Shown here piece by piece: positions 2,247 through 3,059 of a stretch of DNA of 33,716 nucleotides. Numbering within the stretch: the first letter of the stretch is position 1; each line of letters starts with the position of its first letter. The position numbers were made by a program, and so were the translations under genes. The stretch is from positions 1 through 33,716 of the forward strand of contig JASFVE010000011.1 of assembly GCA_050049995.1 (NCBI GenBank), given 5' to 3'. The DNA comes from Chlamydiota bacterium (lineage in GTDB: Bacteria > Chlamydiota > Chlamydiia > Chlamydiales > SM23-39). A model generated the notes under the pieces. That model saw nothing but the letters and a program-made list of their open reading frames with translations. It was not told the origin of the DNA and searched no databases.

Positions 2247-3059
2247 TTAACAGTTTAGTTTCTCAGTGATGACTTCTCGAGTTATTGACATCACGATCGT
2301 TGCTGTTGAGATCATTGCAATCCTCCACTTTAGCCCTAACATAGCATTTCCTCTAGAAAAAAGGTTTATTAAGGAATGTTTTTTAGAAAAATCTTGCTGC
2401 TGCTGCGTCTTGTGAGTGTCAAAAGGTTGACTGACAACTGCTGCAACAGTACCAGCTAAGATCCCAGCAACATATTGTGATACCCAATAATTATAACCTT
2501 CTGATTGAAGCTTTTTAGTTAGTTTTGGAGCAACTCCAAGGTAAGCTGCTGAAAAAGAACCTTCACGTATTGCCGTAGAGAGAAAAGCTCTATAAAAGCT
2601 TGGAAACCCATAAGATGATTGCATATTTTTTACAGTGGCCCAAAAATTTTGACCTGTTCTTTGCTGCTGAATCATAATTCCTTCAAAAGGACAAACAGCA
2701 ATAGCCGAAAAAGCGCCTGATGCTGTAGCTGCAGCTATCGGATCCCATCTCTTTGCAAGAATTCCATTAACAGCTGTTTGGATAGCAATAACAGGAGCAA
2801 AGCTACTGGCAAAACTTTTTCCACCTCTATACAGCACTTGAGGTTTTTTTATAGAAAAAACAACCTTTACATCTTGAGGAGCAGCTGATTGCATGTAATT
2901 TTTAAAAAAAATCATAGGTTGAACAAAAGGGACTACAGACACCCCTGAAAAGACTCCTATGAGAATATTTTTCCCAAAATTTTTTGATGTTGTTTCAGTC
3001 TTCTCAGAAACCTGTAGTTGAACGGATGCTTCTTTTGCTGAACGAATAGGACTTGTCAT
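2247..3059 (-). CDS. Mitochondrial carrier family (SLC25/MCF) protein
   Basis: Threefold repeat with Px[DE]xx[KR]-like signatures QPMIFFKNYMQ, CPFEGIMIQQQ and QPFDTHKTQQQ, each after a Gly/Ala-rich helix. Second half-motifs LYRGG, GFPSFYRAF, MLGLKWRI; 270 aa. Confidence 0.9.
   Translation of the reverse strand: MTSPIRSAKEASVQLQVSEKTETTSKNFGKNILIGVFSGVSVVPFVQPMIFFKNYMQSAAPQDVKVVFSIKKPQVLYRGGKSFASSFAPVIAIQTAVNGILAKRWDPIAAATASGAFSAIAVCPFEGIMIQQQRTGQNFWATVKNMQSSYGFPSFYRAFLSTAIREGSFSAAYLGVAPKLTKKLQSEGYNYWVSQYVAGILAGTVAAVVSQPFDTHKTQQQQDFSKKHSLINLFSRGNAMLGLKWRIAMISTATIVMSITREVITEKLNC

Follow-up and report, generated by a model that had tools for sequence, protein, structure and literature searches.

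Mitochondrial carriers have been treated as a eukaryotic signature, and LncP is the only bacterial example that has been studied experimentally. The window analyzed here, a stretch of 33,716 nucleotides (positions 1 to 33,716 of contig JASFVE010000011.1, assembly GCA_050049995.1, from a Chlamydiota bacterium), carries such a gene on its reverse strand at 2247..3059, an intact open reading frame (ORF) of 270 codons plus stop that begins with ATG. The gene almost certainly encodes an intact six-helix carrier of the SLC25 type, that is, of the mitochondrial carrier family (MCF), and is kept under purifying selection. Comparison with its relatives leaves us just as confident that it belongs to an orphan SLC25 subfamily, referred to here as KN/M, which is common to diverse eukaryotes, giant-virus contigs and many environmental chlamydiae. 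A bacterial mitochondrial-type carrier is a known kind of protein; what is new is the orphan subfamily, its occurrence in a chlamydia whose genome has genes for type III secretion and, by PF03135, none for a VirB4-type ATPase of type IV secretion, and a change of the binding site that is specific to one chlamydial clade.

Membership in SLC25 rests on homology and fold, and the protein is a divergent member. Against the Pfam profile Mito_carr (PF00153), a search that the first-pass annotation of this DNA had asked for, the ORF scores 59 bits (E 4e-16), above the 22.3-bit Pfam cut-off by which membership in the family is judged. When the repeats are scanned alone, repeats 2 and 3 pass this cut-off with 30.7 and 26.7 bits, while repeat 1 stays under it with 14.4 bits (E 0.033), Mito_carr being its sole match. 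Named eukaryotic relatives likewise have just two stretches over the cut-off, and thus a weak repeat 1 is characteristic of the subfamily. Three tandem repeats, each about 100 residues long, are found by the Pfam scans, by profile alignment to the ADP/ATP carrier (AAC) and in the structural model. Repeat 1 (H1, matrix helix and H2; residues 28-105, 2745..2978) has helices at 28-62, 73-77 and 80-101, repeat 2 (H3, matrix helix and H4; residues 106-186, 2502..2744) at 107-135, 139-156 and 159-186, and repeat 3 (H5, matrix helix and H6; residues 187-270, 2250..2501) at 191-222, 230-235 and 243-269, all encoded on the reverse strand.

More distant comparisons agree with this assignment. A sequence search of the PDB with the window protein alone is weak (best E 0.0041), whereas a profile built from 113 sequences, namely the window protein and 112 relatives (alignment A3), matches UCP2 and UCP1 at E of about 1e-30 (best 1.6e-30), GGC1 at E 2.7e-22 and ADP/ATP carriers at E of about 2e-21, the last over profile positions 12-262 and hence over all three repeats; overall, the matches to UCP, GGC1 and AAC range from 1.6e-30 to 1.3e-19. 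The AlphaFold2 model obtained with the same alignment as input has a mean pLDDT of 91 and a pTM of 0.86 and consists of six long helices (28-62, 80-101, 107-135, 159-186, 191-222 and 243-269) plus three short matrix helices, and the hydropathy profile has six peaks. In a fold search of the PDB with this model, the 14 matches with E<=1e-3 are without exception mitochondrial carriers (UCP1, AAC and a Tetrahymena carrier) with query-normalised TM scores of 0.58-0.77, and the next hit has a probability of 0.38. The ESM Atlas returned generic carrier clusters only, two of them mostly eukaryotic and one 73% bacterial. The first-pass annotation had read a tripartite mitochondrial carrier in a bacterial chromosome; the Pfam score, the fold matches and the model, in which the six-transmembrane (six-TM) carrier fold is present, bear this out; the annotation had named the lack of such a fold as grounds against its reading, and the model does not refute it. 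Between the window gene and its copy in a second genome of the genus, dN/dS is 0.141 (dS 0.372, dN 0.052), which indicates purifying selection. A pseudogene reading was rejected given the intact ORF and the dN/dS of 0.14.

The matrix gate of the protein departs from the canonical pattern. Signature motifs lie at residues 48-57 (PMIFFKNYMQ; 2889..2918), 124-133 (PFEGIMIQQQ; 2661..2690) and 212-221 (PFDTHKTQQQ; 2397..2426), each encoded on the reverse strand. The canonical pattern Px[DE]xx[KR] on H1, H3 and H5, which is typical but not universal among accepted members, is complete in repeat 3 only: in motif 1 the acid is replaced by I50 while K53 and Q57 are retained, and in motif 2 the base is replaced by M129 while E126 and Q133 are retained. 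The motifs are thus as the first-pass annotation described them (PMIFFK at 48-53 without its acid, PFEGIM at 124-129 without its base and PFDTHK at 212-217 complete). Its view of a degenerate network is not supported, and the pattern is peculiar neither to this gene nor to bacteria, since the same two residues are missing in nearly all of the 113 rows of A3, the alignment from which all residue counts per position are taken: the H1 acid at position 50 is present in 4 rows, and the H3 base (K or R at 129) in none, with M there in 76. In contrast to these two positions, K53 is found in 112 rows, N54 in 84, E or D at 126 in 108, D214 in all 113 and K217 in 101. A glutamine brace, at +9 from the motif proline, is present in all three repeats (Q57 in 110 rows, Q133 in 94 and Q221 in 108).

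In bovine AAC the matrix pairs are E29-R137, D134-R234 and D231-K32, joining the H1 acid to the H3 base, the H3 acid to the H5 base and the H5 acid to the H1 base. Under this scheme, I50 and M129 are the two partners of one and the same bridge, and the other two bridges, E126-K217 and D214-K53, are retained. Passages of PMC7611774 state that when a bond residue is mutated in carriers its partner is often mutated too, and that a glutamine brace counts as half a salt bridge. By the measure given in those passages, the matrix gate of the window protein amounts to 2 + 1.5 compared with 3 + 0.5 in AAC (three ionic interactions and one brace), and hence a weak matrix gate is not predicted. Judged by the alignment, the missing bridge is a hallmark of the subfamily rather than a sign of decay, being common to more than 100 relatives that include named eukaryotes and two viral contigs; in the subfamily, hydrophobic residues take the place of both partners.

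The cytoplasmic network is a different matter. Of the pattern [YF][DE]xx[KR] on H2, H4 and H6, nothing is left that could form an acid-base pair: the corresponding residues are V97-N98..L101, A177-P178..T181 and R261-E262..T265, in a register that comes from the UCP2 alignment, against which that of contact point II was checked as well. This network is variable across the carrier family, and where weak it can permit uniport (PMC7611774). Its near absence, which belongs to the layout of the subfamily, gives the idea of uniport a sound basis, unlike the matrix motifs. The suggestion of a leaky or unidirectional carrier, originally drawn from the matrix motifs, therefore survives in part: leakiness is not borne out, as two bridges and three braces are kept, whereas unidirectional transport finds a better foundation in the cytoplasmic side.

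In the substrate binding site, contact point I is S86, shared by 86 of the 113 rows, and contact point II on H4 is R165-E166 (2562..2567, reverse strand), with arginine invariant over the 113 rows and E or D after it in 107. An arginine-acid pair at contact point II reportedly marks the amino-acid class of carriers, an observation said to go back to Robinson and Kunji in 2006, and among named carriers outside the subfamily those with the best scores include proteins of ymc1-like and SLC25A20/29-like type as well as others named 2-oxoglutarate/malate carrier. The R-E pair thus suggests an amino-acid-like substrate. Contact point III on H6 is M249 (2313..2315, reverse strand), an uncharged residue where most carriers have arginine; R246, three residues before it, is kept in 111 of 113 rows. 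According to PMC7611774 (in part), contact point II discriminates substrate classes and the residue at contact point III is “nearly always” positive. Among the 49 tree rows that make up the window protein's clade, arginine at contact point III is found in none (M 29, I 7, V 6, A 3, G 1, C 1, gap 2), compared with R or K in 39 of the 44 rows of the eukaryote clade and R in 57 of the 85 remaining rows. Loss of this arginine is specific to the window's chlamydial clade as against the eukaryote clade, and it may mean that the substrate is less anionic than that of the eukaryotic cousins, one positive charge fewer being needed in the site.

The subfamily itself is defined by the hallmark PxxxxK[N]xxQ / PxExx[M]xxQQ / PxDTxKTxxQ together with R-[ED] at contact point II, all of which are present in the window protein. 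A profile search of the whole sequence library returned 13,767 proteins at E<=1e-3, of which 282 reach E<=1e-30, and the hallmark is present in most of the 70 proteins scanned first. A separate homologue search with alignment A2 gave 18 hits and contributed little. Named members comprise a protein from a Simkaniaceae metagenome-assembled genome (MAG) and proteins of liverworts (two species of Riccia, Marchantia and Calypogeia), a moss (Ceratodon), streptophyte and green algae (Closterium, Chlorokybus and Picocystis), Fonticula, Telonema, dinoflagellates (Durusdinium, Effrenium and Symbiodinium) and MMETSP transcriptomes; the label in every case is hypothetical or uncharacterised. The clusters of 20 unlabelled relatives gave no organism names, and one carried the JGI label “SLC25 citrate transporter 1”. 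On a profile of the eukaryote clade, the window protein scores 183 bits and named carriers of other types score at most 130 bits. Alignment of the chlamydial clade (A1, which includes one eukaryote row) with the eukaryote clade (A4) by hhalign gives a probability of 100 and E 1.9e-74 over 245 columns. In a rooted tree, the 70 subfamily rows are monophyletic with respect to 10 outgroup carriers (SH-aLRT 100).

Within the subfamily, the window protein falls in a well-supported clade, which comprises 49 of 178 rows by FastTree (support 99) and 29 of 75 and 25 of 80 rows in quick IQ-TREE runs (support 99 in both); the two smaller trees omit six rows, of which five are long branches and one is a fragment, and include only a random subsample of the unlabelled rows. 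The labelled members of this clade (17, 15 and 16 rows in the 178-, 75- and 80-row trees) are all from chlamydial genomes, and the named eukaryotes form a separate group with moderate support (81-84). Chlamydial rows are spread over at least four supported clades, and in all three trees the branching order among chlamydial, eukaryotic and viral groups is without support. Since the carrier fold arose in eukaryotes, ancient transfer from protist hosts is the most likely source of the chlamydial copies. A recent transfer from a sampled eukaryote was rejected, the best eukaryotic identity being 33% and the GC content of the gene being that of its genome. Some members of the subfamily are fused to other regions; for example, P0097 (461 residues) has a Clp_N domain (PF02861) before the carrier, and P0058 from Telonema (640 residues) has about 345 extra N-terminal residues.

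To see how widely such carriers occur in the phylum, the subfamily profile was run at E<=1e-5 against 400 chlamydial genomes sampled across it, one further genome not being scorable. Matches were found in 113 of the 400 genomes and 86 of 212 genera, often several in one genome; at this threshold the profile is not specific to the subfamily, so that weaker matches may belong to other MCF subfamilies. Matches are not copy numbers. The distribution is uneven, with 14 of 68 genomes in the window's own family, 38 of 90 in family f7, 20 of 46 in f22, 2 of 35 in f23 and 0 of 29 in f20. Full-length copies lie side by side in some genomes (G205:C1:12578-13330 and 13447-14157; G126:C96:35222-36022 and 36034-36780), and adjacent copies also occur in G346. 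As a control, PF00153 gave 0 matches in 14 genomes of well-known free-living or laboratory prokaryotes. The first-pass annotation had taken SLC25 to be eukaryotic, with LncP as the characterised bacterial exception: the precedent of LncP as an effector holds, but the family is not confined to that example, MCFs in “a few Chlamydiales” being already mentioned in one sentence of PMC5621508. LncP is moreover a protein of Legionella pneumophila and not, as had been stated, of L. longbeachae, which has the homologue Llo1924 (PMC3252375, in part). Beyond the sentence in PMC5621508, the literature search, which did not extend to subscription journals and supplements, found no study of a chlamydial MCF.

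The gene sits in an ordinary bacterial setting. The assembly, a MAG of an uncultured environmental chlamydia (1.88 Mb in 122 contigs, 98% complete, with 2.5% estimated contamination), has the window ORF as its only Mito_carr match, and the flanking genes encode bacterial proteins: LysE, a LolCDE-type ABC transporter, phosphoketolase, acetate kinase, RmlA and nicotinate phosphoribosyltransferase. The GC content of the carrier gene (0.378) is inside the window's range. Three sequencing runs were listed as containing the stretch, and none of them is an RNA run. The copy in the genus-mate genome is 90% identical and has the same neighbours, being flanked by genes for a CCCH zinc-finger protein and LysE on one side and by a 354-residue ORF on the other, and thus the bacterial setting assumed in the first-pass annotation is real. 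The carrier has no conserved operon partner: a gene for a GT2-TPR protein that adjoins it in the window is absent from that place in the genus-mate, and the neighbours differ in other members of the clade. Elsewhere in the window's genome, four TLC-type nucleotide transporter (NTT) matches exceed their cut-off, and type III secretion is represented by an FHIPEP/SctV gene (754 bits) and an SctN ATPase (643 bits, above the equivalog cut-off). The match to the secretin family TIGR02516 is under its cut-off, at 79.6 bits, and does not count as evidence. Given the four TLC genes, SctV and SctN, the source is a chlamydia of the obligate intracellular type with a type III system. A search of this 98%-complete genome with PF03135 found no VirB4-type ATPase.

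Ahead of the carrier repeats, the protein has a polar N-terminal extension (residues 1-27, MTSPIRSAKEASVQLQVSEKTETTSKN; 2979..3059, reverse strand) that is almost wholly non-helical in the model, where residues 1-20 have a mean pLDDT of about 50 and residues 21-30 one of 70. Within residues 1-29, S, T, P, Q and N make up 45%, and there is one Leu. The window protein has 47 residues ahead of the motif-1 proline compared with 27-34 in four named eukaryotic relatives, and hence the extension pointed out in the first-pass annotation is genuine. In some members the tail reaches 40-87 residues, and by eye a start of the form M-[ST]-x-[PS]-[IVL] is seen in 9 of the 17 labelled chlamydial rows of the window's clade. 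We infer that the extension may act as a secretion signal.

What the carrier does can be proposed only tentatively. The reading we favour, with a confidence that falls slightly short of even, takes LncP as its analogue and sees the protein as an effector delivered to host mitochondria. The type III system would export the carrier with its disordered, Ser/Thr/Pro-rich N-terminus as the signal, and the host carrier-import pathway (Tom70, Tim9-10 and TIM22) would then take it into the mitochondrial inner membrane, as it does LncP. There, it would move an amino-acid-like metabolite, and its weak cytoplasmic gate would lead to uniport rather than strict exchange, diverting a host mitochondrial pool to the parasite's benefit. 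An LncP-like effector role of this kind is plausible in view of the LncP precedent, the N-terminus, the type III genes and the lack of a conserved operon partner, and the carriers probably serve to tap or rewire host metabolism. Several observations weigh against delivery to mitochondria, however. The N-terminal extension is not universal and is nearly absent in some chlamydial members, and the loss of arginine at contact point III could also mean that classical transport has been lost. In a survey of 174 type III substrates, 36 have predicted TM domains, mostly one or two segments and in two cases three (PMC6110835, in part); none of those substrates exceeds three segments, and thus a six-segment cargo would be unprecedented for type III secretion. 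Helix hydrophobicity gives no help, since the Kyte-Doolittle means of the carrier helices (0.84-1.93) do not discriminate between those of a neighbouring protein resembling inclusion-membrane proteins (Incs; 1.25-1.65) and those of a major facilitator superfamily (MFS) transporter in the window (1.23-2.59). H2, H3 and H6 are slightly more hydrophobic in the window's clade than in the eukaryote clade, a shift that adaptation to a bacterial membrane would predict; the rows compared are kin and the p-values are overstated. Neither helix hydrophobicity nor the distribution of K+R between the two sides separates a secreted protein from one inserted in a bacterial membrane.

A broader alternative, which we hold to be quite possible though less than likely, is that the protein is an SLC25 carrier domesticated outside organelles, in the bacterial inner membrane or the inclusion membrane, and carrying an amino-acid-like metabolite of neutral or positive charge by uniport, with the loss of arginine and the gate of two bridges and three braces as adaptations. 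In the chlamydial inner membrane, a location that we consider rather unlikely, it would be inserted by SRP/YidC/Sec and would import or exchange a host amino-acid-like metabolite alongside the NTTs. Functional expression of mitochondrial carriers in bacterial membranes is possible, the genome relies on imported metabolites as its four NTT genes indicate, and both the wide occurrence in the phylum (113 of 400 genomes) and the local duplication resemble what is seen in transporter families. The remodelling of the binding site in the window's clade specifically and the somewhat greater hydrophobicity of H2, H3 and H6 also speak for this location, as do the six hydrophobic segments, for which PMC6110835 gives no type III precedent. 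In addition, the MCFs of Babela massiliensis, compared here by description only, are read by their authors, without experiment, as nutrient importers (PMC4378268, in part). Set against this are the lack of a signal sequence and a weak K+R bias (14 in the matrix-side loops and 10 on the other side), which leaves the topology in a bacterial membrane poorly determined. Moreover, with the matrix loops on the cytoplasmic side, a polar tail of 27 residues, and of 40-87 in some members, would have to be moved across the membrane, and LncP, the sole bacterial MCF studied, is a secreted effector (PMC3252375, in part).

Secretion into the inclusion membrane, where the carrier would pass a host cytosolic metabolite to the inclusion lumen, seems improbable to us. 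A weak cytoplasmic gate would suit facilitated diffusion there, and a gene for an Inc-like protein of 618 residues lies 2.4 kb away (5450-7306, reverse strand), but MCF proteins have internal signals for the mitochondrial carrier import pathway. Chlamydiae do deliver many Incs to that membrane by type III secretion; however, the known Incs have one or two hydrophobic lobes and not six helices (both from PMC6110835, in part), and LncP reached mitochondria (PMC3252375, in part). A little less probable still is a protein that has kept the carrier fold without transporting anything, and that occupies or perturbs the host carrier-import pathway or inner membrane, or serves as an adaptor. The absence of the contact-point III arginine from all 49 clade rows, the missing cytoplasmic network and a Pfam score of 59 bits compared with 106-113 in eukaryotic members would fit such a role, but R165-E166, S86, R246, the two matrix bridges and the three glutamine braces are strongly conserved, which together with the dN/dS of 0.14 is the pattern of a working gate and binding site. 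Finally, it is highly improbable that eukaryotic or viral DNA was misbinned or misassembled into a bacterial genome. The family is eukaryotic and the assembly has 122 contigs and 2.5% estimated contamination, but the ORF is intron-free, bacterial genes surround it on a 33.7 kb contig and the GC matches, the second genome of the genus has the 90% identical copy among the same neighbours, and the nearest labelled relatives in the tree come from chlamydial genomes.

Several other genes of the window deserve mention. At 1612-2226 (forward strand), a protein of 204 residues has three CCCH zinc fingers of eukaryotic type (PF00642, E 3.6e-14); its gene is convergent with the carrier gene, the two ending 20 nt apart, and it adjoins the carrier in the genus-mate too (L007:6853-7482). 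It is a second eukaryote-like gene at the carrier locus, and its product may be an RNA-binding effector. On the other side, 3092-4339 (reverse strand) encodes a fusion of a GT2 glycosyltransferase and TPR repeats with a hydrophobic N-terminal segment, which ends 32 nt upstream of the carrier gene. No ORF of similar size occupies its place in the genus-mate, and thus it looks like a recent insertion or loss. The 618-residue protein noted above has no Pfam family and has a long coiled, polar middle; it has moderately hydrophobic segments on its N-terminal side, with Kyte-Doolittle peaks at residues 23, 43, 84 and 137, and from these features it looks like an Inc. An ORF of 619 residues occupies its place in the genus-mate. 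The stretch 7440-8834 (forward strand) encodes a protein of 464 residues with a hydrophobic N-terminus that belongs to the endonuclease/exonuclease/phosphatase family (PF03372, E 1.2e-12), a fold that includes sphingomyelinases and inositol phosphatases, which are effectors in other intracellular bacteria. Further along, the phosphoketolase gene (1298 bits) overlaps that of acetate kinase by 4 nt (14595-18070, forward strand), forming an ATP-yielding pair from phosphoketolase to acetate in an obligate intracellular bacterium. At 18057-20540 (reverse strand) lies the gene for a P-type ATPase of 827 residues, which matches the plasma-membrane proton-efflux equivalog TIGR01647 with 962 bits (cut-off 615.5); ATPases of this type are typical of fungi, plants and some archaea and are unusual for a chlamydia. 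In two other chlamydial MAGs, a gene for a NAGPA phosphodiester glycosidase (PF09992, E 1e-37 to 1e-39) is found near the carrier (L009 3972-4808 and L011 6847-7752), a proximity that could be chance or loose linkage.

The presence of these carriers in chlamydiae has implications for both the carrier family and the phylum. Carriers related by profile prove to be common in environmental chlamydiae, with one family of 29 sampled genomes having none, and an orphan SLC25 subfamily is seen to span bryophytes, algae, dinoflagellates, Fonticula, giant viruses and chlamydiae. The conserved paired loss of one matrix bridge, offset by three glutamine braces, is useful for testing models of carrier gating energetics, and in addition one chlamydial clade lacks the otherwise near-universal arginine of contact point III. 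If the carrier is type III cargo, it would be the cargo with the most complex membrane topology known for that system. If it works in the bacterial membrane, the view of the family as confined to organelles would be overturned, and native action in a prokaryotic or pathogen-vacuole membrane would be a first for a mitochondrial-type carrier, within a large unnoticed chlamydial repertoire. Either outcome would make the metabolic coupling of host and symbiont in chlamydiae directly testable.

LncP is among the closest known systems. Both LncP and the window protein are MCF proteins of intracellular bacteria of protists, with six predicted helices and three repeats. LncP is translocated by Dot/Icm, imported through TIM9:10 and TIM22 and shows uniport, and L. 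longbeachae has two further MCFs besides Llo1924 (PMC3252375, in part). The uniport-type behavior was measured for LncP and is only suggested for the window protein by its weak cytoplasmic network. LncP is exported by a type IVB system, whereas the window's genome has type III genes and no VirB4-type ATPase detected by PF03135; moreover, LncP is a nucleotide carrier with a three-fold signature motif, whereas the window protein has R-E at contact point II and lacks one bridge and the arginine of contact point III. The different class at contact point II argues against orthology to LncP or Llo1924, with LncP compared by description only. The MCF genes of Babela massiliensis (Dependentiae) likewise belong to an obligate intracellular bacterium, in this case of amoebae.

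Related in sequence are the eukaryotic members of the orphan subfamily, such as Marchantia polymorpha MPTK1_1g26850, Riccia fluitans R1flu_021329, Fonticula alba H696_02105 and the proteins of Chlorokybus, Closterium, Ceratodon, Durusdinium and Effrenium. They are about 250-300 residues long, align over their full length with the window protein and share with it the hallmark motifs, the serine of contact point I, the R-[ED] pair of contact point II and R246; in contrast, they mostly have Arg or Lys at contact point III, shorter N-termini, a longer H2-H3 loop and third matrix loop, and PF00153 scores of 106-113 bits compared with 59. The viral carriers, L043 on a GVMAG contig (274 residues, 2965-3789) and L044 (251 residues, 2986-3741), score 82-89 bits and likewise have the hallmark motifs and the R-E pair of contact point II and lack the same salt bridge, but keep K or R at contact point III and are 26-31% identical to the window protein; in the rooted tree, they form a group with a sequence from a protist transcriptome within the subfamily. 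Carriers of the amino-acid class (ornithine, carnitine/acylcarnitine and Ymc1-type) have Arg plus an acid at contact point II, as the window protein does; their matrix network is canonical, contact point III holds Arg, and they fall outside the subfamily with an SH-aLRT of 100.

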